Below the pieces are notes generated by a model. That model was not told the DNA's origin and searched no databases. It was given only the letters and a program-made list of their open reading frames with translations. Source: an uncultured Planctomycetaceae bacterium (GTDB taxonomy: Bacteria; Planctomycetota; Planctomycetia; Pirellulales; Lacipirellulaceae). From it: a DNA stretch of 64,000 nt. The stretch spans positions 1-64,000 of the forward strand of contig CAZYQQ010000010.1 of the NCBI GenBank assembly GCA_964650265.1. The letters run 5' to 3'. The translations under genes were made by a program, and so were the position numbers. Shown here in pieces: positions 18,052 through 60,521 of this stretch; within the stretch, counting starts at the first letter, position 1; each line of letters begins with the position of its first letter.

Positions 18052-21000
18052 CTACCCGGGCCGCTCGTCCCCGAGTTCCCCGAAAGCGAAGTCGAGGGTC
18101 GCGCTTTCCGCATCCTCCACTTCCGCGTCACTCACCGGGAAGAACATCCAGGGTGCAGGCCGGACCGCGGCATCGCGAGGAGCGGTCTCCATTTGCCACA
18201 GCCGAAGCGCCGCTGCGCGCGGATCGACCTCGACGGGGTTTGCCATCACCAGTGGCATTCGCACCGCCGGCTGCCAGGGGGAACGCGTGGGAAGGAGATA
18301 TGGCGGCGCCAGCAGGTCGGATGTCGGCTCGGCGGCCACCGGTTCGGCGACTGGAGGTTCGGCAATTGGGGGTTCGGCAATTGGGGGTTCGACGGCCGCG
18401 ACAAGGGCCGCCTCGGGTTCGGGGGGAGTGTAAGTCTGGCCGTAGTGGGCCTTCCAGACGGCGTAGTCGAGCCCGTCGACCACGCCATCGCCGTTGCCAT
18501 CGGCGCCGGAGAACTTGGGGAGGGTCGTGCCGACAGTGTTGCGCCAGAGGGTGTAGTCGGCGGCGTCGACGCGGTGGTCTTGGTTGTAGTCGCCGGGGAG
18601 TGGGGGTGGGGTGGGGGAACTGAGATCGAATGCGAAGACTTCGACACCTTTCGTCGGGTGGCGGGCCCTGAAGAAGAGTTGTTCGCCCACGATCGCCGCC
18701 AGTTCTCCCGTTGATCCCGATGAAGAAACATGAGAAGAGACAGCCCCCGGGTTGGCATCGATGGTCGTCCAACTGAGGGAATTCACGTCGAGAATCCGAA
18801 GTTCTCGACCGTTGGCGGGATCGACGGCATCGACGAGCAGACCTTCGCCGACCACGAGCGGGCCGTAAAACTCCCAGGGATCGGAAGATATGGACCCTGG
18901 ATTGATATCGACCGTCTGGAGGGAGAGATCGACCGTGTCGAACAGACGCAGCTCGTGCCCGTAGGCCTCGTCTTCGGCTGCAAACAGAAGTTTATTGCCC
19001 ATGACGACCAGCCCGCCAGCCCCCGTGAGACGCATCCCCAAATCGGATTCCAGCGCGATGTTTTGAACGATCTGATTGTTTGCAGGGTCGAGTCCATAAA
19101 GGTGATGCGGTTGGGACCCCGAGGTCAAGAAATAAACAAAGTTTCCGACTTTCTTGAAACCGCTCAGATGCCCTGGATTGGACGATGCGGAACCTGGCAC
19201 AACATCGACCTTCACGAAGGTATCGTTTGTCGTGTCCAGAATCCGCACTTCGTTGCCATCGGTATCTCGGGCTGAAAAATAGAGCTTGTTGTCGATAAGG
19301 GTGTAGCCGCTCCCCTGGCCGGGGTCGTCTCCGATCTCGCTCAATGTGTCGATCGCGCCGCTCAGCGAATCGTAGACATGTAATGCACGACTGGAAGTAT
19401 GGCCTTTAAAGTAGGCTTTCGTTCCCACCACGGCAGGCAAGCCAATCGATGAACTTCCCGAACCCGGATTGCCATCGAAGGTGGCGATCGCGCCGCTCGC
19501 CAAGTCGAGGAATCGCCATTCTCTTCCGTATGCCGCATCAGTGGCACTAAACAGCAGCTTGCCACCGACGATCGTCAGTGAGTCGGGGTTGGATCCAGCG
19601 GTGCCGGTACGGATGTCGAATGTTGTGACGTTGCGAGTGACGAGGTTGAAAGCACGAAGCTCGGTGCCGAATTCCTCGTCTCGGGCGACGAAGTAGAGCG
19701 AGTCGCCAATCAGAGTGAGTTCTGTCGGTTGAGTGCTCGTGGCGCCAGGCATAATCAGCGAGACGTCATGGGTCGATAAATCAACAGAGTACAACCCGCG
19801 GCTCGAGTTAGGGCCGGCGGCGAAGAACAACTCGTCCTCTGTGTATGCCCAGCCACTCCTGCCTGGTGACGAAGAAGCGATGCCAGGCTCGATGTCTATT
19901 GTCTCGACTATTCCGGTCGATTGATCGAGCACGTGCAACTCGTCGCCAAGCTGATTGCGAAATCCAGAAGAGAAGAGCTTGTTGCCAATAGCGACAAAAC
20001 CGCTAGTAGTTGAGTTACCCGTTGAGGTCGCGCCAACATTCAGAGGAAATGTGGCGAAGTTTCTCGTCTCACTGTCGAATTCGTGGAGGGCGAATTCGAC
20101 AGTACCATTTTTTGCTGAGAAATAGAGGCTCTTGTCGACTGCAATGAGCGGTATAGGAAGTGTCGGGAGGGTTGCAACTTCCGAAACTACAAGTGTTTCC
20201 GTTTCAAGTTCAATTAACGAACGTTCATTAGTGGGACCAACGACGAAGTATAGTTTTGATTCAATTGTGGTGAAGGGGATAGACTCGAAGTGCGAACTCC
20301 AGGGCGAGGTGTCAATTGTTTCAACGGATTGCGTTGCTGAGTCGATGACGCGCAAAGCTCTTCCATGAGTGAGGTCATCGGCATCCAAGAAAAGACGGTC
20401 GCCAATGACGGCGAATCCACGCATGGGCGTGTTGCGGATCTCAAGGCCCTGCGAGGAGTTGTCGATTCGCTCGATTTCATGAGTCAGGACATTGATCGAG
20501 TGAAGGCGGAATGCCGTCGGTCCTGGACCTGTCAACGGTTTTGCAAAAAAGTAGAGCTTGTCACCCGCGGCCATGAATGGCGAATCAAACATTGGTACAG
20601 GTTCGCCGAAAGGTAATTCCACAACTTCATTCGTATGGGTGCCAATGTTGTAGACATTCAGCTTCCATCCTGGCTGAAAGCCCCAGAAGAAGATTTGGTC
20701 TTCGGCAAGCGCAAATCCGATTCGCGAACCAGGGCTCGAGCCGAGAGGTCCCGCCCTGAGATCAACGACCGTGTAGGCCTCGGTCGCGGTGTCGATGACG
20801 CAGAATTCAACCCCCGTCAGTTCCTCGCCCGCCGCAAGAAAAAGCTTGCCGTCCGCGGTTGCAAAGTGCCGCTGCGGATCGACAATCAAGGTCTCGAACG
20901 TCAACAACGAATAATCGCTCGTATCGAGCGACCGCAACCGCGATCCATGCTCCGCGTCGTACCCAACGAAGTAGACCTTCTCTCCCACCGCGGCGAACGG

Positions 21001-21474
21001 GCCCGCGAGTCCCGCGTTGAGGGAGCCACCCGAATTGTCGCCGTCGATCGACAGGAGCATGCCGGTCGACGTATCGAACGCCCGCAGCTTGTAACCGTTC
21101 TCCGTGTCGTACGCTGAAAAGTAAATCACCTCCCCCACCGCCACGAAGCCGCCAAGGTCCCCCGCCATCGAGTCCCCCGCCCCAGGGTTGATGTCAACGA
21201 CCAGCGCGATCTCGTTGGTCGCGAGGTCGAGCGCGTGGAGTTCCGCGCCGTAGTCGGGGTGGCTCTCCAGGAAGTAGAGCTTGCCGTTGTGGACGAGGGT
21301 CTCGTCGATCAGGGGCACGGGGGCCTGGTTGATGTCGAACACCGTAAGGTCGGCCGCCAGCAGATGCCGCTGTTCGAGTTGTTCCACCCGCAGCGGGCGA
21401 TGGGTGCGGGAGTGACGCACGCGATTGCTCCAGTTGACGATTGTCGATTGGGGAGTCGATGCGCAAGGGCGCAA
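18052..21474 (-). CDS. Giant secreted beta-propeller protein with degenerate ELWxxDGT-type repeats (G-x-ELRxFD..DINPGxxSSxP) and a C-terminal dockerin-like module. A Planctomycete N-terminal LEQRHLLAA motif is present.
   Basis: More than 15 repeats end in (D/N)INPG..SS.P. The C-terminus reads DYNQDHRVDAADYTLWRN..GDGVVDGLDYAVWKAHYG. The track start is TTG at 21474. A GTG at 21420 gives MRHSRTHRPLRVEQLEQRHLLAA and is the more likely start. Confidence 0.7.
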   Translation of the reverse strand: MRPCASTPQSTIVNWSNRVRHSRTHRPLRVEQLEQRHLLAADLTVFDINQAPVPLIDETLVHNGKLYFLESHPDYGAELHALDLATNEIALVVDINPGAGDSMAGDLGGFVAVGEVIYFSAYDTENGYKLRAFDTSTGMLLSIDGDNSGGSLNAGLAGPFAAVGEKVYFVGYDAEHGSRLRSLDTSDYSLLTFETLIVDPQRHFATADGKLFLAAGEELTGVEFCVIDTATEAYTVVDLRAGPLGSSPGSRIGFALAEDQIFFWGFQPGWKLNVYNIGTHTNEVVELPFGEPVPMFDSPFMAAGDKLYFFAKPLTGPGPTAFRLHSINVLTHEIERIDNSSQGLEIRNTPMRGFAVIGDRLFLDADDLTHGRALRVIDSATQSVETIDTSPWSSHFESIPFTTIESKLYFVVGPTNERSLIELETETLVVSEVATLPTLPIPLIAVDKSLYFSAKNGTVEFALHEFDSETRNFATFPLNVGATSTGNSTTSGFVAIGNKLFSSGFRNQLGDELHVLDQSTGIVETIDIEPGIASSSPGRSGWAYTEDELFFAAGPNSSRGLYSVDLSTHDVSLIMPGATSTQPTELTLIGDSLYFVARDEEFGTELRAFNLVTRNVTTFDIRTGTAGSNPDSLTIVGGKLLFSATDAAYGREWRFLDLASGAIATFDGNPGSGSSSIGLPAVVGTKAYFKGHTSSRALHVYDSLSGAIDTLSEIGDDPGQGSGYTLIDNKLYFSARDTDGNEVRILDTTNDTFVKVDVVPGSASSNPGHLSGFKKVGNFVYFLTSGSQPHHLYGLDPANNQIVQNIALESDLGMRLTGAGGLVVMGNKLLFAAEDEAYGHELRLFDTVDLSLQTVDINPGSISSDPWEFYGPLVVGEGLLVDAVDPANGRELRILDVNSLSWTTIDANPGAVSSHVSSSGSTGELAAIVGEQLFFRARHPTKGVEVFAFDLSSPTPPPLPGDYNQDHRVDAADYTLWRNTVGTTLPKFSGADGNGDGVVDGLDYAVWKAHYGQTYTPPEPEAALVAAVEPPIAEPPIAEPPVAEPVAAEPTSDLLAPPYLLPTRSPWQPAVRMPLVMANPVEVDPRAAALRLWQMETAPRDAAVRPAPWMFFPVSDAEVEDAESATLDFAFGELGDERPG

Positions 21475-25301: not shown

Positions 25302-25967
25302 TTAAGCCCACTCTGGCGGCCTTTTCAGTACTCGCCCGGACTTGGTCTGGACTTCGTCGGGGAATTGCGACTTCTTGAGAGTGCCCCGGCCAATCATGCA
25401 CTCGCCATCGGCAACTTGGATTAAGTGGGCCGACGATCGAGATGGTGGCATTGCGACGTTAATCCGTTTAGATGACAGGTTAGCCTTAATTGCCTTAATT
25501 GGGGGCGTCAGGTCACTGTCGCCGGAGATCAAAAGAGCAACGTCGTAGCGGTTCGCAAAGGCGTCAAAAATCATCTCCGTGGCAATGTTAACGTCGGTCA
25601 TTTTTTCTTCCGCCCAATTCCACGTTGCGCCACACTTGCGGCAATCTTCGGCCTTGTCTAAGTACTGCCCATAGATGATTTTTAAGTCGCCGACCGTGCC
25701 GAGTGCGTCCAAGTACAAGGACTGACGCTCTCGCCTTGAATTGCGCTTGGCCGCATAACTCGGATTGTCAGTTGGCCTGGCGCCACTGATGCGGGCGGTA
25801 AAGTACTTTGTACAGACGAGCTCTTGGTCGGGCCTGATTAACCTCTGTGCTAGAGTCCGAATGTTTATCCATAAGTATCGGCGATAATTGCTTTCGCAGA
25901 GCCCGTAATACAGGTTGAATCCGTCGACATACGCGATCACGCGTTTTTTTCGGGCTTGATCTTCCAT
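25302..25967 (-). CDS. NYN-domain (LabA/DUF88-like, PIN-related) protein in a low-GC islet.
   Basis: IAYVDGFNLYYG, TDVNIATEM and LISGDSDLTP motifs typical of NYN nucleases. GC is clearly lower. Confidence 0.65.
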   Translation of the reverse strand: MEDQARKKRVIAYVDGFNLYYGLCESNYRRYLWINIRTLAQRLIRPDQELVCTKYFTARISGARPTDNPSYAAKRNSRRERQSLYLDALGTVGDLKIIYGQYLDKAEDCRKCGATWNWAEEKMTDVNIATEMIFDAFANRYDVALLISGDSDLTPPIKAIKANLSSKRINVAMPPSRSSAHLIQVADGECMIGRGTLKKSQFPDEVQTKSGRVLKRPPEWA

Positions 25968-45394: not shown

Positions 45395-45438
45395 AAGGGC
45401 CCCCTTCGATGCGTCGGAGTGGGGCCCTTCGCTTTTTG
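45395..45438 (+). terminator. Terminator-like hairpin AAGGGCCCCC..GGGGCCCTT followed by CGCTTTTTGG.
   Basis: Read directly. No annotated plus-strand gene lies upstream. It could be a small-RNA 3' end. Confidence 0.35.
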
Positions 45439-45486
45439 GAAGTTGGAAGTTGGAAGTTGGAAGTTGGAAGTTGGAAGTTGGAAGTT
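45438..45486. repeat. Seven perfect tandem copies of the heptamer GGAAGTT.
   Basis: (GGAAGTT)x7 directly after the hairpin. The 7-bp unit is not a multiple of three. It lies intergenic, 3' of the HTH gene. Confidence 0.9.
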
Positions 45487-45631
45487 GGAAACGCGTGCCG
45501 CGTTTCCCCTGACCTCTGGCCCCTGACCCCTTTTTTGGGTGTTTTGAGAAATCGATTTCCGCCAAACAATTCGCGCTTTTCTTGCCGTCTCGCGGGGGGT
45601 GAGGCTGTCATGCGAGGGATTTGCGAGCCAG

Positions 45632-46558
45632 TCATTCCAAAAAACCCTTCGACTTTAATTTCTTTTCCCACTCTTCTTGGGTTCCGAAATCGATCTCGAC
45701 GAAGGGGAGCATGCGGGCCAGTTCACGGGTGAAATTGCAGTAGCAGGCCATGAAGGTGTTCTTGATGCGGTGCCGTTGGTCAACATCTGGGATCTCCTCA
45801 TGCAGCCGCGTCAGGAAAGCCAGGCGGAAGTCGCGCAGGGATTGCTGTTTGAACTCTGTCGACATGATCGCCTTCTTTTGATCGTCGCTCAGCCTGTTGA
45901 GCAGGAACGCCGCGGCGCGCCAGTTTGACCTTGCCTTTTGGCGAATCGAATTGATCGGCTCCATTTCGGCTTCCATCTCGGCCCGGCACAGTTTCTCGGC
46001 GAATGCGGGGTCGCGACGCTTTTCGTTGGCGATGGTTTCGTCACTACACCCCACGTACCTGCTCGCACGGGTAATGCTGGCGCCGGCAGCGACCAGGGCA
46101 CAGATTTCCCGTTTTTTCGCTTCGTCGAGCACGCGGGGGCGGCCCGGTTTTTTCGACGCGGCGGTGGGTGGAGGGGGATCAGCCGCCGGCGACGCGTCAA
46201 ACGTGGGAAAAGTGAGTGGGGGTCGCGGATCGTTCATCACATGCTCCTTTCTCGGGGGCAGCGTTACAGGCTGCCGGTCGGATTCTGGTGCCCGGCCACT
46301 GGCGACCGGGCATGTGGTCAACAGTATACTACTCGCACTGGAGCCTTCTTGGGCAATTTTTGGGCACGCACCGCCCCACTGGCTAAAGGTCGGCCGCCGC
46401 TCCCGGCGGACCGGGACGCGCCCCTCCGTCGGCTCCTCCTTCACCCGGACAAGTTCGGCCCCCGGGTTGGCCGCCACCAGGGCACCAGATCCGGTGGCTG
46501 TTGGTTCTGGGGCTTTGGGTTCCGGGGTTTTGCGGCGTCGACGTCGTATACGGCTCAT
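45632..46558 (-). CDS. Pro-rich protein with a resolvase/Hin-type helix-turn-helix (GRPRVLDEAKKREICALVAAGASITRASRYVGCSDETI) and no recognisable catalytic domain.
   Basis: GRPR + HTH pattern. The N-terminal region is disordered. It sits at the edge of the low-GC island. The start is uncertain (track ORF extends to 46636). Confidence 0.45.
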   Translation of the reverse strand: MSRIRRRRRKTPEPKAPEPTATGSGALVAANPGAELVRVKEEPTEGRVPVRRERRPTFSQWGGACPKIAQEGSSASSILLTTCPVASGRAPESDRQPVTLPPRKEHVMNDPRPPLTFPTFDASPAADPPPPTAASKKPGRPRVLDEAKKREICALVAAGASITRASRYVGCSDETIANEKRRDPAFAEKLCRAEMEAEMEPINSIRQKARSNWRAAAFLLNRLSDDQKKAIMSTEFKQQSLRDFRLAFLTRLHEEIPDVDQRHRIKNTFMACYCNFTRELARMLPFVEIDFGTQEEWEKKLKSKGFLE

Positions 46559-47524
46559 GGCAGGGGTTCTCCGGTAGATTGGAAAGGAAAGGGAAGAACA
46601 GGGGTACCCGGCGGTAGAGATACACCGGTACACCAAAAATCCAAGCTACCGGGCGGGGTGCCCGATTTCGACAAGAAAGTGGGGAGAAAGTGGGAAATCG
46701 CGTGGGGGAAGGGGATTTCAGAGATTTTTAGTGTGGCGCGACCGTTTCGGTCGCGAAGATTGGAGTCGCATCGAAGTACCCCTTTTTGCTATCTTACCAG
46801 CTTTAGTCATGCCAGCCCGCAAGGATGCGTCTGAGTTCATGCTACACCATCGCGAACTTTCCAAGCCGCATCTTCGACTACTTCGAGTTTACCGCCGAAA
46901 TCGAGAAGATTCGCGAGTCGAACATCCTCTACCTGATCGTCTCCAAGTTTGCTGACGTTGACTTGAGCCGTATGCTGACAGGTACCTAGGGCTCCAGAAG
47001 CGAAATGGCGGGTTTGCAATGCTTCCATTCACAACCAAGAACAAGTATTCGCGCTAGATTGGGTTCCGGTATCTGATTGTTCGACTGATTTGCGCATCGA
47101 ACTCCTCGATTATGTCGATGCACTTCTTAAATCGCTTGTCGTCTCAAATGAAGAGTATGTCCCTGAATTAGAGCAAGCGGTGGCAAAGGCCCACCGAGTG
47201 CTTGAGAGCCTTGGAATTACCAAGGCCAAGTAGTGCTTCGAACTTCTCTCGCACTCAATTCAGTAGTCCCTCGATGGAACATTTTATTCCAGCGGTAATG
47301 ACGGTCATCATGGCTATTGGGGTGTGGATTCAGTATTGGAGCTACCGCGATCAACACAAAGCTCCACCACCGCCACCCGACGAGACACGCAGTAACTGAG
47401 TCGACCGCGCCCGGCGACCCTATGTCAGGCTTCCGCAAAGTTGCTCCATCCCTAATAATGGTGCCACCTCCACGGATCAGGAGGTCAATTGCATCAATAA
47501 ACGCTGAGTCGTGGGCACCGCGAT

Positions 47525-50500
47525 ATGCTGGACTTGAAAACGGCCATTGCTCGCTTTGGCGCCGACGCGAAAGCAAAACTCGCCAATCCGGCCGCAACCG
47601 GCGAGCCGGAGGATCAACTCCGCGCTCCGCTGGAAGCGCTCTTTGCCGATTTGGCCGAGCTTTGCGGATTCAAACGCGATTGGGTCACGGCAGTCGGTGA
47701 ATCGTCGCTTTCCGCGCTCAAGACTCGGCCCGATTACGCGATCACCTTGCGAAACGTCCTCGTCGGTTATGTGGAGATCAAGGCACCGGGCAAGGGAGCC
47801 GACCCGCGTCGCTACAAAGGGCATGACAAGGAGCAATGGGAAAAGCTACAGTCGCTCCCGAACTTGTTGTATACCGACGGCAACGCCTTCAGCCTTTGGC
47901 AGGATGGGGAGCTCGTCGGTTCGATCGTTGAACTGGAGGGGGATGTCGAAACTTCGGGAGGCAAGCTCGCCGCTCCACTCGAGTTGGTGGCCCGGTTCGA
48001 CAACTTTTTGCGCTGGGAACCGATTCCGCCGAAATCGGCAGCGGAGTTAGCCAAGGTCTCCGCCCGGCTCTGCCGTCTATTGCGCGATGAAGTGACCGAG
48101 CAACTGGCGGAGAAAGATCCCGCCCTCACCGATCTCGCGGCCGATTGGCGCCACCTCCTGTTTCCCGAAGCGAACGACGCCCAGTTTGCCGATGGCTACG
48201 CCCAGGCCGTGACCTTCGGCTTGCTGATGGCACGGTCGAGCGATATCAAACTCGCTGGCGGGCTCGACCAGGTTGGCAAGCAACTTGGCAAGACCAACTC
48301 GCTGATCGGTGCCGCCTTGCGTCTGCTTACCGACGAAGTCGGCAGCGAGTCGACGCTCAAGACTTCGCTCGGCGCCTTGGTCCGGGTGCTCGATTCAGTC
48401 AATTGGCTAGCGATCAGCAAGGGGAATCCCGATGCCTGGCTCTATTTCTACGAAGACTTCCTAGCCGTTTACGACAACCGGCTGCGAAAGCTCACGGGGT
48501 CCTACTACACGCCGCCAGAGGTAGTCGAGCCAATGATTCGGCTCGTCGACGACGTGCTCCGGAAGTATTTCGCTCGCAGTGCCGGGCTTGCCTCTGCCGA
48601 CGTGACCCTTGCCGACCCCGCCGTGGGGACAGGCACGTTCATCCTGGGCGTGCTCCGCCGCATTGCCGCCGACGTCGAGGCCGACCAGGGTCCGGGTGCT
48701 GTGCCGCAGGCAATTGAGTCGGCCATCGGGCGACTGATTGCGTTTGAGATGCAACTCGGACCCTTTGCGGTGGCTCAGCTTCGTGTGTTCGCCGAGCTGA
48801 GGGAACTGATGGGCAAGCCACCCCGCGCCGTCCCCAGGATGTTTGTTACCGACACGCTCGATAACCCCTACGCCAAAGTCGAGGAGATGGGGTCACTCTA
48901 CCGGACAATCTCGCAATCCCGACTGCAGGCCAACGAGATCAAGGCGAACGAGCCGATTACCGTCGTGATCGGCAATCCCCCCTACAAGGAGAAAGCGAAA
49001 GGACGTGGCGGCTGGGTTGAAGAAGAGCAGCTTAGTAAATGGATGCCGCCCGCCGCTTGGGGTGTCGGAGCCCATGCCAAGCATCTTCGCAATCTCTATG
49101 TCTATTTTTGGCGGTGGGCGACGTGGAAGGTGTTCGACCGTGACGCACCTAACGATACAGGGGTCGTCTGCTTCATCACGGTCGCTGGCTTTTTGAATGG
49201 CCCCGGCTTTCAAGGAATGCGGGCCTATTTGCGCGAGAAGGCCGACCGCATCTGGGTTGTCGACTGCACGCCAGAGGGGCACCAACCGGATGTGCCGACG
49301 CGGATCTTCCAGGGGGTGCAGCAGCCTGTTTGTATCGTGCTGGCGGCGCGATCGAAGTCAAAAGGGGTCAAAAAGCCGGCTACGGTGAAGTACACACTGC
49401 TACCCGCCGGCAAGCGGGAAGAGAAGTTTGCGTCGCTCGCGAAGCTCAAGTTGAATTCAAAGGCATGGCAAGAATGCTCGACCGACTGGCGAGCCCCGTT
49501 TCTTCCCGCCGCCACGGGCGATTGGGTAAGCTACCCTGCACTCGACGAATTATTCGCTTACAACGGCTCGGGGGTCATGCCAGGGCGCACATGGATTATA
49601 GCTCCAGATGCGGAATCGCTGCACCTGCGCTGGCGAATATTGACGAGGGCGAAACCTGACCAAAAGCAAGATCTGTTCGTACCACACCTGAACAAGGGAA
49701 AGCTGGGGGATCGCCACATCGATCGCGAAGTGAAGAAGGGTCTACCCGGTTACCCTGATAATGCAACTTCCATTGCAAATGAACGAGGTAATTCTCTGGC
49801 CCCCGTTTTATATGGATTTCGATCATTTGATCGACAGTGGATCATTCCCGACAATCGCGTTCTCAATCGCCCAAACCCCGAGTTGTGGCGCTCTCACGGC
49901 ACACACCAGCTGTATTTAACGGCGCCGAGCGATCGTTCACCCACGGCCGGACCGGCGATTTCGTTCACAACGGGCATTCCCGATTTGCACCACTACAACG
50001 GCCGTGGCGGGCGTGTATTTCCCCTTTGGCGAGACTCAGAAACTACGCAGCCCAATCTGCCGCCCAAGCTCCTGGAGTTCTTGTCGGCAACCTACAAGAG
50101 ACCCGTCGCACCAGAGGACGTCGTCGCCTATCTGGCGGGCGTGGCCGCCAATCCCGCCTATACCGCGAGATTTCAGGACGATCTTGCCCAACCCGGACTG
50201 CGGATTCCGTTCACGGCCGAGCCAAGTCTATTTGCAAAAGCGGTCGAACTCGGTCGGCGTGTTATCTGGCTTCACACGTTTGGTGAGCGGTTTGCCGATC
50301 GCAAGGGGGGTCGACCTCCAGGGCCACCGAGACTGCTGAAAGACCGGGCTCCGCGGATTCCGAAGGATGGGGCCATTCCGGACGACCCGGAGTCGATGCC
50401 CGACACCATGACCTACGACGAAGCGCACCGCCGCTTGAACGTTGGGGCTGGGTTTATCGAGAATGTGCCCCGCGAAGTGTGGCAATACGAAGTCTCCGGG

Positions 50501-50740
50501 AAGCGGGTGTTGACGCAGTGGTTCAGCTATCGTAAGAAGAATCGTGAGCGGCCAATCATCGGCGACCGGCGACCCCCGTCGAAACTCGGCGACATCCAAC
50601 CCGACCATTGGCTGGCGGAGTACACGACCGAGCTGCTCAACGTGTTGAACGTTCTGGCGATGCTCGTCGAAATGGAGTCGGATCAGGCAAAACTCTTGGA
50701 GGCCATTTGCGATGGGCGGACGATTGATTTCCGTGGATGA
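47525..50740 (+). CDS. Single-polypeptide restriction-modification enzyme of Type IIL/IIG (MmeI-like). N-terminal PD-(D/E)xK endonuclease, gamma-class N6-adenine methyltransferase, and a C-terminal target-recognition region.
   Basis: The nuclease motif is RPDYAI..VGYVEIKAPGK (D..ExK). MTase motif I is DPAVGTGTF and motif IV is VIGNPPY, plus the SYYTPPEVVEPMIRL region. 1071 aa with no helicase motifs. GC is low. Confidence 0.75.
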   Translation: MLDLKTAIARFGADAKAKLANPAATGEPEDQLRAPLEALFADLAELCGFKRDWVTAVGESSLSALKTRPDYAITLRNVLVGYVEIKAPGKGADPRRYKGHDKEQWEKLQSLPNLLYTDGNAFSLWQDGELVGSIVELEGDVETSGGKLAAPLELVARFDNFLRWEPIPPKSAAELAKVSARLCRLLRDEVTEQLAEKDPALTDLAADWRHLLFPEANDAQFADGYAQAVTFGLLMARSSDIKLAGGLDQVGKQLGKTNSLIGAALRLLTDEVGSESTLKTSLGALVRVLDSVNWLAISKGNPDAWLYFYEDFLAVYDNRLRKLTGSYYTPPEVVEPMIRLVDDVLRKYFARSAGLASADVTLADPAVGTGTFILGVLRRIAADVEADQGPGAVPQAIESAIGRLIAFEMQLGPFAVAQLRVFAELRELMGKPPRAVPRMFVTDTLDNPYAKVEEMGSLYRTISQSRLQANEIKANEPITVVIGNPPYKEKAKGRGGWVEEEQLSKWMPPAAWGVGAHAKHLRNLYVYFWRWATWKVFDRDAPNDTGVVCFITVAGFLNGPGFQGMRAYLREKADRIWVVDCTPEGHQPDVPTRIFQGVQQPVCIVLAARSKSKGVKKPATVKYTLLPAGKREEKFASLAKLKLNSKAWQECSTDWRAPFLPAATGDWVSYPALDELFAYNGSGVMPGRTWIIAPDAESLHLRWRILTRAKPDQKQDLFVPHLNKGKLGDRHIDREVKKGLPGYPDNATSIANERGNSLAPVLYGFRSFDRQWIIPDNRVLNRPNPELWRSHGTHQLYLTAPSDRSPTAGPAISFTTGIPDLHHYNGRGGRVFPLWRDSETTQPNLPPKLLEFLSATYKRPVAPEDVVAYLAGVAANPAYTARFQDDLAQPGLRIPFTAEPSLFAKAVELGRRVIWLHTFGERFADRKGGRPPGPPRLLKDRAPRIPKDGAIPDDPESMPDTMTYDEAHRRLNVGAGFIENVPREVWQYEVSGKRVLTQWFSYRKKNRERPIIGDRRPPSKLGDIQPDHWLAEYTTELLNVLNVLAMLVEMESDQAKLLEAICDGRTIDFRG

Positions 50741-50938
50741 ATTGCGGGCGGCTGGGGCACTGGACGTGCCGCCAGAGTGGCGGAAGTCGCTGGGGGGCGG
50801 GAAGTCGCGTGATGACCAAGGGCAACGGAGTTTGTTCGACGATTTAGTGGACGATCCGACGGGCGAGGCGCCATCGTCCGAGTCGACTAGCGCCGTCGGC
50901 GATGAGTAACGGAGAAGTACGTTTGGTAATCCCGGATT

Positions 50939-51601
50939 TCAGACGGCCTCCTCACTGCTTGGCATATCAGGCTGCGGCATAAGAAGATCGGGCCAGTATC
51001 GTTTTCGCAGTCCCTCGTGTACCTTGCTGAGGCTCCAAGGGACAAGTGCAGCAGAGGAGGTGACCTCTTCTCCGCGCGTCAGTCTGACCGTCCAGTCACT
51101 TGCGTAATAGGCGTCCGAATTGAACGTAAGTTGAGGAAACACACTAACGAGACGTTCCGCGTCGTTGTCACGTTTGTTGCGGGTTGTCCACGCGAAGTGC
51201 GCAGCCACCTTGTCGCGGAAAGGCTTTACTTCTGGCAGTACGGCCTTAACGTACGCCTCATTGTCTCGCGCCGGATCGCACTTCTGAGCGATGATATTCA
51301 CCGTGCGGACGTAGTTGCAAGCCGAGACCGCGTACCAATGAAACGCACACGTAAGGAGAGCTTTTGGAATATCCGCATCCATTCCGGAGTTCCCGAAATG
51401 CACCACATGCACACCCTTGGGTGTCCGAGAGGCTACGACGTTCTCAGCACGCTGTACTTGCCGGCACAAGAACTCCATCCCTTCAAACATGCAGAGAAGC
51501 GCCCAGTATTCATTCGTGGGTTCTTCAAACACGTTTCCGGGTACTCTTATGTCGTCGATGTGATCGAGCACCGTAATGTCTAACTCTTTCACGTATGCCA
51601 C
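50939..51601 (-). CDS. Hypothetical protein (220 aa), second gene of a tight two-gene cassette next to the RM gene.
   Basis: Clean ORF in low-GC DNA, 3 nt downstream of the preceding gene. I recognise no motif. Confidence 0.5.
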   Translation of the reverse strand: MAYVKELDITVLDHIDDIRVPGNVFEEPTNEYWALLCMFEGMEFLCRQVQRAENVVASRTPKGVHVVHFGNSGMDADIPKALLTCAFHWYAVSACNYVRTVNIIAQKCDPARDNEAYVKAVLPEVKPFRDKVAAHFAWTTRNKRDNDAERLVSVFPQLTFNSDAYYASDWTVRLTRGEEVTSSAALVPWSLSKVHEGLRKRYWPDLLMPQPDMPSSEEAV

Positions 51602-51604
51602 GTT

Positions 51605-52213
51605 TCAACTCCTTTCGTCGTCTATTTCCACAAAATACTTGTGATGCTCTATCACATTGGCGTACTGCGTAGAAACATTGAGCACATCGCATGCATACAT
51701 CAAGAACGATGCCATGACAAACGGCTCATAGTCTAAAAGCTTCCCAGCGTCTTCTTGGAGTTCGTGGTCAGAGTGGAATATGACGCCGTTAAAGAGGATG
51801 TCGCATATCTTCTGTGGCGTGTAGGGCACTTCGGACCCAGGTGCGCCGATCGCTATCTTTAGTGGAGGGTCCTCCGCTGCCTCCTTCAACGCACTCTTAA
51901 CACGTTTGAAAGTCGGCCGTACATCCTCTGGCGCATACTGGACCAGAATGTTCATCACCCTAAACAGTTGCGTCGGTTCCCGCTTCGCGACTAACTTACG
52001 AAACAATGTGGCAAACGAGCGGAAGTCGTCACGATCATACTCTGGGTACCGGCCTTCTGTACTATCACGAGTAACACGGATCGTATGGTCTTGCTCTCTG
52101 AGTTGTCTGACGAAGCGGCACGCGTGCAGTTCGCCAACAACCTTATGAAAGGCGCGAAGTATTTGTACATTGGTTTGCTTTTGCATCGTTGTCTTTCTCG
52201 CTTGGCCTTCCAT
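51605..52213 (-). CDS. Hypothetical protein (202 aa), first gene of the two-gene cassette.
   Basis: Clean ORF in low-GC DNA. I recognise no motif. Confidence 0.5.
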   Translation of the reverse strand: MEGQARKTTMQKQTNVQILRAFHKVVGELHACRFVRQLREQDHTIRVTRDSTEGRYPEYDRDDFRSFATLFRKLVAKREPTQLFRVMNILVQYAPEDVRPTFKRVKSALKEAAEDPPLKIAIGAPGSEVPYTPQKICDILFNGVIFHSDHELQEDAGKLLDYEPFVMASFLMYACDVLNVSTQYANVIEHHKYFVEIDDERS

Positions 52214-52405
52214 TACTAGATTGTGCGATTGAGATCGAGGTTCGCATCTTGGACTGGATTATATCTCAAAATGTGGATCTCCGAAGGCGCCTACGTCGCT
52301 TTGATTGGTCGAGACAGACCTTTCCGGGTGTGGCACGCGTCCCGGTCTTCGATTAGAAAGCGGGCCGATGGAGCAAATTCCACGACCGGGACGGTCGTAC
52401 CACAC

Positions 52406-53062
52406 TCACCCCACTGGCACCACGCAAATACTCTCCAGCGCCCGCGGCTCCAACCTCAGCGGTGCCGCTCCCAGGTCGAGCGTGCGGCTGCCGTCGGCGT
52501 GGGTTTGTCTTACTTCGCCGGTGACGCCGATGCCGATGCCCGACTCGGTGAGTTCTCGCAGGAACTCGGGGGACTGTTCCAGCACCCGGACGATGCGGAA
52601 CTCCTGGCCGGTGTCGCATTCGGCCAGCGGGATCGCCCCCCACTCGACGATCGCCCCGTCGGCGGTGGGGATCGGGTCGCCGTGGGGGTCGAACTTGGGA
52701 AAACCGAGGAACTGGTCGATCCGATCGACCAGCCGGTCGCTTACGGCGTGCTCCATGTGCTCGGCCTCCTCGTGGACCTCGTCCCAGGTGAGGTCGAGGG
52801 TGTGGGCCAGAAAGTGCTCGATCAGCCGGTGCCGCCTGATAACCCGCAGTGCGAGGGCCCGACCGGCGGAGGTGAGCTGCACCCCTTCGTAGGGGCGGTA
52901 GGTGGCGAGATTGCCATCGGCCAGGGTCTTGAGCATGCTGGTCACCGTGCCGGGGGAGACCCCCATCGCCTCGGCAATCCGGCCGGTCGCGATCGATTGG
53001 CCACCCGTCGCGTCGAGTTGAAAGATGGTCTTGAGATAGTTCTCGACAGTCAGACTCGCCAC
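52406..53062 (-). CDS. DtxR/MntR-family metal-dependent transcriptional repressor with a C-terminal FeoA/SH3-like domain.
   Basis: MASLTVENYLKTIFQL.. HTH. Metal-site residues in ..HEEAEHMEH... C-terminal SH3-like FRIVRV segment. Confidence 0.85.
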   Translation of the reverse strand: MASLTVENYLKTIFQLDATGGQSIATGRIAEAMGVSPGTVTSMLKTLADGNLATYRPYEGVQLTSAGRALALRVIRRHRLIEHFLAHTLDLTWDEVHEEAEHMEHAVSDRLVDRIDQFLGFPKFDPHGDPIPTADGAIVEWGAIPLAECDTGQEFRIVRVLEQSPEFLRELTESGIGIGVTGEVRQTHADGSRTLDLGAAPLRLEPRALESICVVPVG

Positions 53063-53076
53063 GCCGCTCGCCTCCA

Positions 53077-53160
53077 GAAAAAGGTGTCAGGAACCTTTTT
53101 CTTATGTGCATGCCTCACTGCAAAGCGATTTGCTGAAAAAAGGTTCCTGACACCTTTTTC
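53077..53160. repeat. 85-bp paired-palindrome element. Two inverted copies of AAAAAGGTGTCAGGAACCTTTTT are separated by a 33-nt spacer containing GCAAAGCGAT. A second family member is at 58806-58880.
   Basis: Exact reverse-complement arms, read directly. Each 23-bp arm is itself an 8-7-8 palindrome (AAAAAGGT..ACCTTTTT). It lies in the divergent dtxR/hydrolase promoter region, 15 nt upstream of the dtxR start. Confidence 0.7.
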
Positions 53161-56433: not shown

Positions 56434-56458
56434 GTCCCGTGCAACTCTTCAGCCAACT

Positions 56459-56635
56459 GAAGCGAAATAGCCCCGTCCCAAGGATTTCAACACGGAGGCA
56501 CTGAGACACGGAGATCAACGAGCGGGTTTTGCAGCGAATCCTATCTCTTGGTTTTTTGAAATAACTCAACATCAACGCACACGCCAACCCGCCAATAACA
56601 TCTCCGTGCCTCTGTGTCTCCGTGTTTTTTATCCA
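56459..56635. mobile_element. MITE-like repeat element of about 177 bp, flanked by a 12-bp direct duplication CTTCAGCCAACT. An inverted homologue is at about 60295-60484.
   Basis: Direct repeats at 56447-56458 and 56636-56647. Internal inverted ACACGGAG-rich ends. The body aligns in reverse complement to the element upstream of the DUF1501 gene. Confidence 0.55.
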
Positions 56636-57022
56636 CTTCAGCCAACTCAGTCGGCTGAAAAGTTACGCCACTGTAAATAGAAAGCCGCTCCAACCAGTTT
56701 GACCGATTGGAGCGGCAAAGAGCAATCTCGCCTAATGAAGTCGACGGTACGCACCGACGCCGATCAAGCCGAGCACCGACCAGACCACGATCGTTGTCGC
56801 CTCGGGCACCGGGGCCGGAGTGAAGACCACACTAATGATCAGGTCGTCATGATTGTCGTCAAAGTTGGCTCCATTGTCGTCATAACCGAAGTACAGTCGA
56901 TTCGCATCATGCCCATTACCTGGTCCTACAAAGATTCCAAATTGATCGCTGCCAGGACCATGCACACCCGCAGGAACGGTAGTAGCGCCATCAACGCCCC
57001 CCCCAGTGAAAAACTCAACCAC

Positions 57023-57166
57023 GACAATCCCAGACACGCAACATTGGCGTTGCTGTCAGATCGAATTAAATCGTTGCGACAGTTGGTGTTGCGCTGCCCG
57101 GTCTGATTTAGCGCGCCACTGCGGCTCGGGATGAAAGGTTGACTGTCTGCGTTTGGGCCGTGGGAC
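57023..57166. repeat. About 140-bp direct repeat, copy 1 (GACAATCCCAGACACGCAACATTGGCG..GATGAAAGGTTGACTGTCTGCGTTTGG). Copy 2 is at 58373-58530.
   Basis: About 95% identity, read directly. The two copies bracket the SUKH-1 gene. Confidence 0.75.
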
Positions 57167-57421
57167 GATTTTCTAAATCGTCGGCGGTGCCAGCCGACGT
57201 AGCGATCAAGAAGAAGGAGGTCGGGGGGATGTTCGTGGAGGTCAGCCAAGGGGGCGTGTTTTGAATTGGCTTGTAAGGATCACGAAAACGCGAAAGATCG
57301 AAAGCTCCGATCGAGTCCGTGTGCCACGCAACGCGGGACCAACACCAAGGAACTTTCGTGTTTTCGTGCTTTCGTATTCGTTGCAATCCATGTGAAGGCT
57401 GAGTGCCTCGGATTGCGTCAA

Positions 57422-57895
57422 TCAATTGTGAGTAGTATCAATGCGGCTCGCAAGCCACGCATCGAATGCATAGCTTGTTAGTTCACCGACATCTAATTCA
57501 TCCCAGCATTTTGGCATTTCAGGGACTAGGACGATTTCAGCGTCGTGTTCACTATCCATTTTCAGTAGCAACAACTGCCCTGTCTCACGGTCCCTGCCGA
57601 TAGGTATGTACTTTGAAAAGACGTCGTGCTGCTTTTGCCTAGACCAGGAAGCTACTATATCAAGCATGTCATCAATGCGGCGTAGCTCCAGGCCAACTTG
57701 ACAGTCGCCTAGCGTTGAGAAATAAACGCCGGAGCCGAGTTCACGCAAAAATTCCCTATAAAATCCTGGCAACTTGATCGACCGCTTCTTTTCGATTGCA
57801 AGCAATTCTTCTTCATTGAACTGCTTTTCAACGCCACACCACCCTCGTTCTCTCGTTTGAACACGAGACTTATCGGTTTTTGATCGCTCAACCAT
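57422..57895 (-). CDS. SMI1/KNR4 (SUKH-1) family protein, an immunity-type protein of polymorphic toxin systems, in a low-GC (about 45%) segment.
   Basis: ..EEELLAIEKKRSIKLPGFYREFLRELGSGVYF.. fits the SUKH-1 LP..Y..FL..G pattern. No toxin gene is adjacent. The start was chosen at an internal Met; the track ORF extends to 58075. Confidence 0.6.
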   Translation of the reverse strand: MVERSKTDKSRVQTRERGWCGVEKQFNEEELLAIEKKRSIKLPGFYREFLRELGSGVYFSTLGDCQVGLELRRIDDMLDIVASWSRQKQHDVFSKYIPIGRDRETGQLLLLKMDSEHDAEIVLVPEMPKCWDELDVGELTSYAFDAWLASRIDTTHN

Positions 57896-58372
57896 TCGGC
57901 GGATACTGGATAGTATATGGTGTGACATTTGACGTGGTGAGTTCCTACAGGTCGAAGATGATTTCAAATGGCTCGTTGTTCCTAGCAACTTTCTTGCCGC
58001 TAATGACAAGGGTGCGTGAAGTGAAACGCACCAAATGGCGCCGTACCCCAATCGGTGCGTTCCGCTCCGCTTCACGCACGCTACGGTACTTTCGATCTTT
58101 CGTGATCCTGATAAGCCAATTCAAGACACGAAACCTTGGCTGCCCGCCACGGCCATCCCCCCATCCCACAACATCCCCCGCATCTCCTTTTGGAAACGCC
58201 CCGCTTCGGTGACTCACGTCACCGGCTCAGTGTTGGGACAAAACCAGACACTCCGCTTTCCCCACCCGTCAATATATCAAATTGTCCCCCACCGCCAATC
58301 TTCCTCAAACAAGAGGGGGGGACAATCCCAGACAGGGGGGACAATCCCAGACACGCAACATTCGACAATCCC

Positions 58373-58530
58373 GACAATCCCAGACACGCAACATTGGCGT
58401 TGCTGTCGGATGGAAGTAAATCGTTGCGACAGTTGGTGTTGCGCTGCCCGGTCTGATTTAGCGCGGCCGCCGTGGCACGGGATGAAAGGTTGACTGTCTG
58501 CGTTTGGTGCGTTTGGGCCGTGCGTTTGGG
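58373..58530. repeat. About 140-bp direct repeat, copy 2. It carries extra tandem partial copies of GACAATCCCAGACA upstream and GTTTGGGCCGTGC downstream.
   Basis: Read directly. Confidence 0.75.
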
Positions 58531-58534
58531 CCGA

Positions 58535-58588
58535 AATGGCAGGCCGCGTCCGCGCTGCGGACGATTTGGAAAATCGTCCCACAATCGG
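58535..58588. repeat. REP-like 50-bp element, copy 2 (see 164-213).
   Basis: Read directly. Confidence 0.6.
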
Positions 58589-58805
58589 CACCTCTCTTTC
58601 GTGCTGTTAACGCGGCATGCTCCGGGGCCTCACGGCCCCAGCTCTGAAGTGCGGATGAGAGAGGGGGGGACAACCCCTTCAAGCGGGTGACTGAAGTCGG
58701 CGGGTGGACCGGGGAGTGGGGCCCTGGGTCTCAAGCACGAAGTTCCTGGTCGTGCAATCGCCGACATCCCGCAAGAGTGGTTGTCCCCCCAGGCACAGTA
58801 CGAAG

Positions 58806-58880
58806 GAGAAAAAGGTGTCAGGACCCTTTTGCTGCAAGCTAAGCGATGGGGTCGAAAAAAGGGTCCTGACACCTTTTTCT
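58806..58880. repeat. Paired-palindrome element, second family member (arms AAAAAGGTGTCAGGACCCTTTT, spacer with GCAAGCTAAGCGAT). It lies just 3' of the DUF1501 gene.
   Basis: Same architecture as 53077-53160. It could also act as that gene's terminator. Confidence 0.65.
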
Positions 58881-58887
58881 CTTTTTC

Positions 58888-60294
58888 TCAGGCAAATATC
58901 TCGCGGGCCACGTTGCCCGCCACGTCGGTCAGGCGGAAGTCGCGGCCGGCGTAGCGATAGGTGAGTGACTCGTGGTCGAGTCCCATCAGGGCCAGCAGGG
59001 TGGCATGCAGGTCGGTGGTGTGCATTTTGCCCTCGGTGGCGTGGAGCCCGTACTCATCGGTCGCGCCGTGGGTGAAGCCGGGCTTCACGCCGGCACCGGC
59101 AAGCCACATCGGATAGCCGGTGATGTTGTGATCGCGGCCATCGGGTCCCTGAGCGGTCGGCAGTCGGCCGAACTCGCTCCCGAACAGGACGAGCGTTTCC
59201 TCGAGCAGGCCCCGCTCCTCGAGATCGGCAAGCAGGGCCGCGGTCGGCTGATCGGTGGCCCGCGAGTTGCGAATGAGCCCGTTATGAAGGTCGGTGTGCT
59301 GGTCCCACCCGGGATGGCAGATCTCGACGAACCGGACCCCCGCCTCGCTGAGCCGCCGGGCCATGAGGCACTGCCGACCGAAGCTCGCCGTGGCGGGTGA
59401 GTTGACTCCGTAGGCCTCGAGTGTGCCGGCCGATTCGCGCGACAGGTCGAGCAGGCCGGGGACCGCCGTTTGCATTTTGAAGGCGAGCTCGTACGACTCG
59501 ATCACCCCGTTGAGATGGTCGGGGGCATGGGGAGTCGCCGCCAGGTCGCGGTTCATCCGTTGAACCAGGTCGATCTGTTTACGTTGGAGCACGGCATCGG
59601 TCCGCGGCCGCAGGTTCGGGACGTAACCGGCATCGTTGATCCTCAACCCCTGGTAGTAAGCGGGCAGGAACGCGCTGCCGTAGTTGGCCGCGCCCCCAAA
59701 GCCGGGCGGGGGATTGATGGTGACGTAGCCGGGAAGATCCTGGTTCTCGGTGCCAAGGCCGTACAGGAGCCAGGAACCCATCGAAGGTCGCGTGAGTGTG
59801 ACGAGCGCCGTCCCCGTGTGGAGTTGCATCACCGCTTCGGGATGGGCCGGGGTGTCGGTGTGCAAACCCCGTAGGAAACAGAACTTGTCGACGTGCTCCG
59901 CCGTGTGGGGAAAAAGTTCCGAGACCCACCTCCCGGTCTGACCATGCTGGGCAAACCGGAACTTCGACGCCGTGAGGGTTCCTCCCCCTGGTCCCGATTT
60001 GCCATGATCCTGCTGCAATTTTGGTTTGTACTCCCACGTGTCCATTTGGGAGATCGCCCCCTGCATGAACAGGAAGATGATCCGCTTGGCCTTCACCGGA
60101 AACTCGGGGGGCTTCGGCGCGAGGGGACCGGGTGCTCCCTGCGAGGGGGACGCGGCGGTGGCGGATCGACCGAACATTCCGGCAAGGGCCAGGTAACCAA
60201 ACCCGGCACTCGCCGACTTGAGGGCCGCGCGGCGCGACAGTAGCGAACTCGTTGGAGTTGCATGGGAATTCACTCGGTTCATTTGGTTCTCCAT
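58888..60294 (-). CDS. DUF1501 sulfatase-like protein with a Tat signal.
   Basis: SRRAALKSASAGFGYLALAG twin-arginine signal. DUF1501-typical body. Paired with the downstream PSD1-type gene. Confidence 0.85.
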   Translation of the reverse strand: MENQMNRVNSHATPTSSLLSRRAALKSASAGFGYLALAGMFGRSATAASPSQGAPGPLAPKPPEFPVKAKRIIFLFMQGAISQMDTWEYKPKLQQDHGKSGPGGGTLTASKFRFAQHGQTGRWVSELFPHTAEHVDKFCFLRGLHTDTPAHPEAVMQLHTGTALVTLTRPSMGSWLLYGLGTENQDLPGYVTINPPPGFGGAANYGSAFLPAYYQGLRINDAGYVPNLRPRTDAVLQRKQIDLVQRMNRDLAATPHAPDHLNGVIESYELAFKMQTAVPGLLDLSRESAGTLEAYGVNSPATASFGRQCLMARRLSEAGVRFVEICHPGWDQHTDLHNGLIRNSRATDQPTAALLADLEERGLLEETLVLFGSEFGRLPTAQGPDGRDHNITGYPMWLAGAGVKPGFTHGATDEYGLHATEGKMHTTDLHATLLALMGLDHESLTYRYAGRDFRLTDVAGNVAREIFA

Positions 60295-60484
60295 AAAAAA
60301 CCACAGAGCACACGGAGCGACACGGAGGAAGGGAGAATAACGCGGAGACGCAGAGACACGGAGATGTTATTGGCGGGGCGGAGCAAGTCCTGTCGCCTGA
60401 GTTATTGAAATAATGAAGGGGACGATTCGATTCAAAACCCGCTCGTTGATCTCCGTGTCTCTGCGTCTCTGTGTTGAAATCCTT
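60295..60484. mobile_element. MITE-like element, inverted homologue of 56459-56635, carrying extra CACGGAG-type internal repeats.
   Basis: The ends ATAAAAAAC.. and ..GTTGAAATCCTTG, and the core CACGGAGATGTTATTGGCGG / CAAAACCCGCTCGTTGATCTCCGTGTCTC, match the reverse complement of the 56.5-kb element. Confidence 0.55.
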
Positions 60485-60521
60485 GCGCCTCGCAGTAGGT
60501 GCATTGGTATTGAAGTATTAC

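Follow-up and report, generated by a model that had tools for sequence, protein, structure and literature searches.

The stretch of 64,000 nucleotides (nt) analysed here (the window; positions 1 to 64,000 of contig CAZYQQ010000010.1 from an uncultured Planctomycetaceae bacterium) contains, between purK and a DUF1501 gene, a solitary gene of the SUKH-1 family. This gene probably (we put the probability at roughly 0.6) is an orphan immunity gene, the remnant of a horizontally acquired toxin-immunity cassette, and is embedded in a decaying intergenic zone that has been colonised by repeats. The window is high-GC planctomycete DNA; the product of its purK gene shares 72% identity with the Aeoliella mucimassa (Lacipirellulaceae) protein and 91% with the counterpart on a JGI metagenome contig.

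A SUKH-1 gene of foreign composition

The gene in question is the following:
57422-57928, minus strand: intact SUKH-1/SMI1_KNR4 gene, 168 amino acids (aa), containing LPGFYREFLRELGSGVYF; identified with Pfam, AlphaFold2 (AF2) and Foldseek

The encoded protein is a true SUKH-1 member both by hidden Markov model (HMM) and by fold. The PF09346 (SMI1_KNR4) model matches it with 38.8 bits (E = 1.7e-9) over 121 of the 125 model positions, compared with the curated Pfam gathering cut-off of 25.4 bits, and for the SUKH_5 model the score of 28.3 bits is likewise above the cut-off of 27, whereas SUKH_6, at 26.6 bits, falls slightly under its own cut-off, also 27. The AF2 model (predicted local distance difference test score, pLDDT, 88.4; predicted template modelling score, pTM, 0.84) folds like YobK and BF1740, and its best Foldseek matches in the PDB are 3D5P (SMI1/KNR4 family), 2PRV (YobK), 2ICG and Knr4, with a probability of 1.0. 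A profile of the subfamily compared with the PDB retrieves the Bacillus subtilis immunity protein YobK (E = 0.0024). An earlier sequence-only reading of this DNA had ascribed SUKH-1 features to the protein, and the HMM score and the fold agree with that assignment. The protein aligns end to end with the 12 relatives used, which indicates that the gene is full length.

The purK gene stops at 56433 and the DUF1501 gene occupies 58888-60294 on the minus strand; the 2.45 kb between them are devoid of host-like coding sequence, and the SUKH open reading frame (ORF) is the sole intact gene of this interval. The interval has a GC content of 53.5%, while the window as a whole has 61% and the genes on either side have 65-68%. 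The SUKH coding sequence itself has a GC content of 46.7% and a GC content at third codon positions (GC3) of 47%, whereas the respective values are 67.5% and 84% for purK and 64.8% and 80% for DUF1501 (65-68% GC and 80-84% GC3 overall for purE, purK and DUF1501). Pfam confirms the neighbours as purK, DUF1501 and a PSCyt/PSD1 protein, and the earlier description of a low-GC gene standing alone between purK and the DUF1501/PSD1 pair thus holds.

The DNA homology between the window and the purK locus of its closest relative (L007) ends at 56440, directly after purK. Both in L007 and in A. mucimassa (L008), the gene after purK is of the peroxidase type, and the SUKH gene is absent from these purK loci. 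The end of homology, combined with the different gene after purK, identifies the 2.4-kb stretch as a synteny breakpoint and, given that the nearest relative has a different gene at this position, there is no empty site or alternative cargo to compare. Positions 57161-58076, with the SUKH gene, are matched at 100% identity by a Logan contig from SRR16798009; one end of this contig coincides with the border of the left direct repeat described below, and the other (58076) falls inside a 72-nt palindrome, as would be expected of assembly breaks at repeated sequence.

A small subfamily with relatives in immunity contexts

On sequence comparison, the window protein is very divergent, and its subfamily is tiny and patchy. 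A word-indexed search of 5.8 billion proteins returned only the protein itself, and an exhaustive phmmer search against 1.84 billion representatives yielded 15 proteins at E <=0.001, the best of these with 33-39% identity. A metagenome scan with the subfamily profile added two short contigs only, and neither a DNA nor a protein search of plasmids gave a match.

The most informative relative, P0003 (35% identity), is found in locus L020 of the metagenome-assembled genome GCA_040901665.1, 15 nt downstream of the gene for a 396-aa PT-HINT protein. The C-terminal domain of this toxin (~110 aa, FDDVNFNELAGNTLVKK...FDLLK) has no Pfam match and accordingly may represent an undescribed toxin family. 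The segment that comprises the toxin C-terminal (CT) domain and the immunity gene has a GC content of 48-50% within a contig of 62-66% GC, and the cassette is bracketed by direct repeats of 149-160 nt (172-331 and 2110-2268; 88-89% identity) that are coding and correspond to the conserved pre-toxin segment LDV[IL]ASTFWDSDYFDARKNAAWERSGLA.TWVPLIVE. Orphan toxin modules usually have a conserved coding segment of this kind, preceding the toxin domain, as their homology handle. Among the other relatives, P0008 is followed in tandem by an Imm11 gene, P0002 is solitary in a low-GC islet between ordinary genes, and P0004 adjoins an IS3 transposase. The relatives share the low-GC compositional signature of the window gene; apart from the SUKH gene, a tblastx comparison of the whole 2.4-kb region with all fetched SUKH loci detected nothing in common.

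Judging from these contexts (PT-HINT, Imm11, solitary, IS3), the subfamily behaves like immunity genes that travel with polymorphic toxin cassettes and outlive them. The designation of the window gene as an orphan immunity-type gene, first made in the sequence-only reading, is therefore a fair one for a solitary SUKH-1 member whose relatives are located next to a PT-HINT toxin or an Imm11 gene. Isolated SUKH genes have been proposed to confer immunity to non-self toxins (Zhang, Iyer and Aravind, 2011; PMC3113570), SUKH expansions in planctomycetes have already been noted (PMC3113570), and orphan SUKH immunity proteins from arrays of the rAID type (recombinase-associated acquired interbacterial defence) in Bacteroidales have been shown to be protective (PMC12247911).

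Direct repeats around the SUKH gene

Two long direct repeats (DR), the left (DR_L) and the right (DR_R), enclose the gene, and the right one is accompanied by partial copies of its own ends:
57023-57161, plus strand: DR_L, delimited by alignment and BLAST; ends without stutter
58373-58512, plus strand: DR_R, 93-95% identical to DR_L
58316-58372, plus strand: partial restarts of the repeat start, before DR_R (19-nt unit twice, 9-nt unit 2.6 times; the tandem units extend over 58316-58386)
58499-58535, plus strand: stutter copies of the repeat end, with extra TGCGTTTGG(GCCG) / GTGCGTTTGGGCC units (9-nt and 13-nt units at 58499-58533)

Flanking repeats of ~140 bp with ~95% identity had been noticed before; they are real, with an identity of 93-95%, but the ends assigned to them at that time, 57166 and 58530, lie too far out: the left one takes in a few bases without homology, the right one stutter units. 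The alignment of 57016/57023-57161 with 58366/58373-58512 shows 93% identity over 142 gapped columns (BLAST E = 2.5e-55), with 95% in the first 100 nt and 87% in the following 47. Within the window, the 23-nt repeat start, GACAATCCCAGACACGCAACATT, is confined to this locus. Slippage-type copies at the right repeat, also reported earlier, are present at both ends of DR_R. Three restarts of GACAATCC... lie at its start, two of which follow G6; the motif GGGGGGACAAYCCC, found ahead of the restarts, has four copies, all within 58316-58790, among them one at 58664 and an inverted one at 58777. Stutters are found at both ends of DR_R and at neither end of DR_L, which points to DR_R as the derived copy.

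The frames of the repeats contain stops or yield no protein-like reading, so that no coding sense is apparent. Folding of the repeats as RNA or as DNA is no better than that of shuffled sequences (hairpin energy z of -0.5 to -1.0), and they are accordingly rejected as a structured RNA or an attC site; a search of Rfam (E up to 1) returned nothing on the repeats. The criterion applied for integron attC sites was a pair of R'' and R' boxes, 50-150 nt apart, inside an imperfect palindrome, and no R'' RYYYAAC / R' GTTRRRY pair exists in 56440-58890 on either strand. A template repeat/variable repeat pair of a diversity-generating retroelement was dismissed as well: the mismatches between DR_L and DR_R (A/G, C/G, T/G, T/C, C/T, T/A) are not adenine-specific, and no reverse transcriptase domain was found. 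A tRNA-linked attachment (att) site was discarded, as the window contains no tRNA gene.

The sequence-only reading had suggested looking in related genomes for the same repeats with a different cargo, or for an empty site; neither other copies of the repeats nor another cargo or an empty site came to light. The window has no further copy; in 185,579 representative genomes, the five matches to a 20-mer from the repeat core are all chance matches of 20-22 nt in unrelated taxa; two patterns derived from the repeats in viral contigs, and the repeat in plasmids, found no match; and there is no similarity to the L020 repeat or to the other fetched SUKH loci.

These observations bear on the possibility that the direct repeats are recombination sites, or homology handles, through which immunity-gene cassettes are exchanged with the help of a recombinase encoded elsewhere, as in rAID arrays or integron cassettes. 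Such exchange would be in line with the presence of a single short foreign gene between two 140-nt repeats of the same orientation, with the ~150-nt direct repeats that likewise bracket the related SUKH cassette in L020, and with the definition of rAID systems by arrays of orphan immunity genes with conserved intergenic motifs (PMC12247911). Nevertheless, this explanation is improbable: a single cassette is present, Pfam scans of the 30 larger ORFs across the window detected no recombinase domain, attC boxes and a hairpin better than shuffles are lacking, and the repeats recur neither in the window nor in the representative genomes, viral contigs or plasmids. Furthermore, the L020 repeats are toxin-gene coding sequence unrelated to the window repeats and, being coding and without shared sequence, they are a different thing. 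In a more specific form of this explanation, the non-coding repeats would be the handles of an undescribed system through which Lacipirellulaceae-like planctomycetes gain and lose single orphan immunity genes without a linked recombinase, and repeated exchange would have left the stutters as its footprints; we consider this highly unlikely.

Alternatively, the repeats could be the attL and attR sites of a decayed integrative element that has lost its integrase, a remnant resembling a cis-mobilizable element (CIME). Direct repeats that bracket DNA of foreign composition at a synteny breakpoint are what such a remnant would present. However, the interval amounts to only 1.2 kb, and neither an integrase remnant nor a tRNA or tmRNA target was found in the window; the repeats have diverged by 5-7%, and site-specific recombination does not produce stutters like those on either side of DR_R, all of which makes a decayed integrative element a very doubtful source. 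The direct repeats most likely are scars of local recombination or replication.

Inverted repeats, palindromes and a probable gene fragment

The zone between purK and DUF1501 harbours additional repeats, some of which belong to families with copies elsewhere:
57214-57309, plus strand: left arm of an inverted repeat located inside the direct repeats, with a 74-nt ungapped core (57223-57296)
58084-58189, minus strand: right arm of the inverted repeat, holding a 16-nt internal duplication
58009-58082: 72-nt GC-rich palindrome upstream of the SUKH gene, abutting low-GC DNA
57160-57190, minus strand: copy of the hairpin element hpB, abutting DR_L in inverted orientation
58536-58587, plus strand: hpB copy that abuts DR_R and shares 94% identity with the one at 163-214
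57281-57368: hairpin beyond the SUKH stop codon, which overlaps the left inverted-repeat arm at its inner end
56479-56629, 60336-60485 and L007 6129-6177: element A, a palindromic intergenic element of ~150 nt with CACGGAG-type arms
56732-57037, minus strand: PEP-CTERM-like ORF, 101 aa (..PAPVPEATTIVVWSVLGLIGVGAYRRLH), GC3 56%, with its start inside DR_L

The arms of the inverted repeat are 90-105 nt long and flank the SUKH gene, and the core at 57223-57296 is 82% complementary to 58089-58162. The 72-nt palindrome folds as DNA with -23.9 kcal/mol (z = -4.4), an energy that none of 200 shuffles equalled. Three copies of hpB, with the core GGACGATTTGGAAAATCGTCCCAC, are present in the 64 kb (163-214, 57160-57190 and 58536-58587), and hpB may be a family of the source genome that resembles repetitive extragenic palindromic (REP) sequences. 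Element A occurs also in L007, which is ~80% identical to the window in coding DNA, and the element family thus is conserved across species. The hairpin at 57281-57368 may be a terminator of the SUKH gene; its fold is not significantly better than those of shuffled sequences. On the other side of the SUKH gene, a promoter-like site is present at 58298-58271. Of two related long hairpins (58803-58884 and 53076-53160, respectively; 28-nt arms, 96% complementary), one is located at the 3' end of DUF1501 and the other at that of an iron-dependent repressor gene; they probably are a shared terminator-type repeat and account for spurious miRNA matches in Rfam, such as those on the hairpin beside DUF1501.

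The ORF at 56732-57037 resembles the C-terminal end of a PEP-CTERM protein, with a weak match (E = 0.06) to the NCBIfam model of the PEP-CTERM tail. A signal peptide, an N-terminal part, a Pfam match and a paralogue in the window are all lacking, and the ORF probably is a gene fragment.

The inverted repeats raise the possibility that the unit that they delimit (57214-58189) is a non-autonomous element similar to miniature inverted-repeat transposable elements (MITEs), with the SUKH gene as a passenger. The close flanking of the low-GC cargo by the arms fits this proposal, and so does the position of P0004 beside an IS3 element, which shows that the SUKH gene family does associate with mobile DNA. 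On the other side, the arms are only 82% alike, no target-site duplication was seen on reading the sequence outside them, no transposase is present, and there is no second copy of an arm in the window and no match of the arm pattern in viral contigs. In addition, element A and hpB are also paired around the locus and, with other palindromic families arranged in this way, two independent insertions of short repeats are an equally likely source of the arms. All things considered, a MITE-like unit seems unlikely. The combination of inverted repeats, palindrome and dispersed hairpin element shows the locus to be a general junk zone, rich in repeats, and not a clean cassette. The inverted repeat, the palindrome, the dispersed hairpin element and the synteny breakpoint had all escaped the sequence-only reading.

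A scenario for the origin of the locus

Under the interpretation favoured here, that of an immunity gene left over from a toxin-immunity cassette, a low-GC polymorphic-toxin CT/immunity cassette would have entered a high-GC Lacipirellulaceae-like planctomycete by horizontal transfer, and the toxin part would subsequently have been lost, possibly leaving behind a stub of 22 codons. The SUKH gene would have been retained because its product, by analogy with other family members, neutralises, by binding it, a matching toxin domain that rival bacteria deliver; the toxin-neutralising role of SUKH proteins, from which this function is derived, is well established. The 140-nt direct repeats probably are a local duplication, produced either when DNA with one copy was inserted through a single crossover or when replication switched templates, the latter conceivably at the microhomology GACAAYCCC; DR_R would then be the derived copy, with its junction made at the microhomology. 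The only activity that can be predicted for the repeats is a RecA-type loop-out between them, by which the SUKH gene would be deleted and one repeat would be left. For the inverted repeats, palindrome and hairpin element, the simplest reading is membership in families of short intergenic repeats that have colonised the non-coding zone. No evidence of a new mobile system was found.

The putative stub is the following:
57945-58008, minus strand: 3' end of an ORF upstream of the SUKH gene, the last 22 codons (TLVISGKKVARNNEPFEIIFDL*) of which lie in the low-GC segment

This ORF is on the same strand as the SUKH gene and stops 16 nt before the SUKH ATG, the geometry expected of a toxin 3' end, and these 22 codons give a hint of a displaced toxin, the second possibility raised in the sequence-only reading.

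Several observations, however, speak against the scenario as a whole or in part. First, as already stated in the sequence-only reading, no cognate toxin gene adjoins the SUKH gene, and no toxin domain was found in any of the 30 larger ORFs scanned. Second, the case for a displaced toxin is weak: the position of the stop codon and the low-GC tail of the ORF are in its favour, but the similarity of the stub to the L020 toxin is marginal (BLASTP E = 0.02-0.05) and ambiguous, with Smith-Waterman comparison producing two mutually exclusive alignments (shuffle P = 0.005-0.009) and with 6-26 of 1385 random ORF tails matching the L020 toxin as well as the stub does. Third, the origin of the direct repeats is deduced from one locus only. 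Fourth, distant members of the group (P0136 and P0138, 20-26% identity) are encoded 41-48 nt downstream of purA, in the same orientation, in two lineages, at the following positions:
L013 3689-4267; L014-L016; L017 1093-1626; L018; L019: purA-linked distant SUKH-1 relatives

The conserved position after purA hints at a role other than immunity for some SUKH proteins of this group. The proximity of the window gene to purK and of these distant relatives to purA may be a coincidence, reflect an insertion hot spot or indicate a functional link. The purA-linked genes and the location of the window gene near purK are also the grounds on which the SUKH protein could be assigned a cellular role, like that of Syd or Smi1/Knr4, in which case the repeats would be irrelevant intergenic clutter. 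Such a role is unlikely for the window protein: the GC3 of 47% in a genome with 80% GC3 argues against a long-resident housekeeping gene, the closer relatives are linked to a toxin or to Imm11, the gene is missing from the purK loci of relatives, and the subfamily, with 15 representatives among 1.8 billion, is tiny and patchy.

Other features of the window

Outside the purK-DUF1501 region, a segment of ~7 kb (45490-52400) is absent from the syntenic L007, where homology jumps from 45449 to 52419. It encodes a 1071-aa Type ISP restriction-modification enzyme (47525-50740) along with three or four ORFs without a Pfam match, has a 7-nt tandem repeat at its left edge (~45436-45490), and looks like a defence island. 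A gene for an NYN-domain protein (25302-25967), with housekeeping genes on both sides, lies in a 1-kb patch of low GC content (53.7%). The region 18052-21474 encodes a secreted protein of 1140 aa with a planctomycete extracellular motif and a dockerin domain, and its GC content is partly low (53-55% at 19-21 kb).

Comparison with known systems

Orphan immunity genes reveal which toxins a bacterium encounters in its natural surroundings and are able to change how competition between bacteria ends. The window gene adds a very divergent SUKH-1 example from a little-studied planctomycete lineage, and its small subfamily occurs in several states, namely linked to a toxin, in tandem with an immunity gene, adjacent to an insertion sequence (IS) and solitary. 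If the direct repeats did mediate exchange, cassette-type acquired defence would extend beyond Bacteroidales; nothing at this locus demonstrates exchange.

Chromosomal integron cassettes, such as those separated by the Vibrio cholerae repeats (VCRs) in Vibrio, have near-identical attC repeats. They resemble the window locus in that direct repeats of ~120-140 nt flank single small ORFs of atypical composition, but the window has no R''/R' boxes, no significant repeat hairpin and, among the ORFs scanned, no integrase, and it contains two repeats only.

The rAID arrays of Bacteroidales (PMC12247911) likewise consist of orphan SUKH immunity genes, presumed to protect against foreign toxins, that are separated by conserved intergenic sequence. 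Unlike the window, with its one gene and no recombinase, in a different phylum, rAID includes a tyrosine recombinase and many co-oriented genes. As the window has one unit, its pair of 140-nt repeats, which might be compared with the intergenic motifs of rAID, is indistinguishable from a local duplication.

Orphan toxin-CT/immunity modules of rearrangement hotspot (Rhs) and contact-dependent growth inhibition (CDI) loci reportedly recombine via shared homology, a finding attributed to Koskiniemi et al. in 2014. The L020 cassette, in which a conserved coding segment is repeated before and after the toxin-CT and SUKH gene, matches this arrangement, and the window repeats around the SUKH gene are similar in length and spacing. 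However, the window repeats are non-coding and are accompanied by no main toxin gene, HINT or RHS sequence, and by at most a stub of 22 codons.

The best match is with the isolated SUKH immunity genes (PMC3113570; YobK, PDB 2PRV). The window gene differs from these in that its protein is <=39% identical to anything among 1.8 billion representatives, in its placement between long direct repeats, and in the lack of a toxin among the ORFs scanned within 57 kb. It shares with them the Pfam family, the fold, the small stand-alone protein and the foreign composition, and its close relatives adjoin a PT-HINT toxin or another immunity gene. The locus is a leftover of a known kind of bacterial self-defence, represented here by a very divergent SUKH-1 protein.

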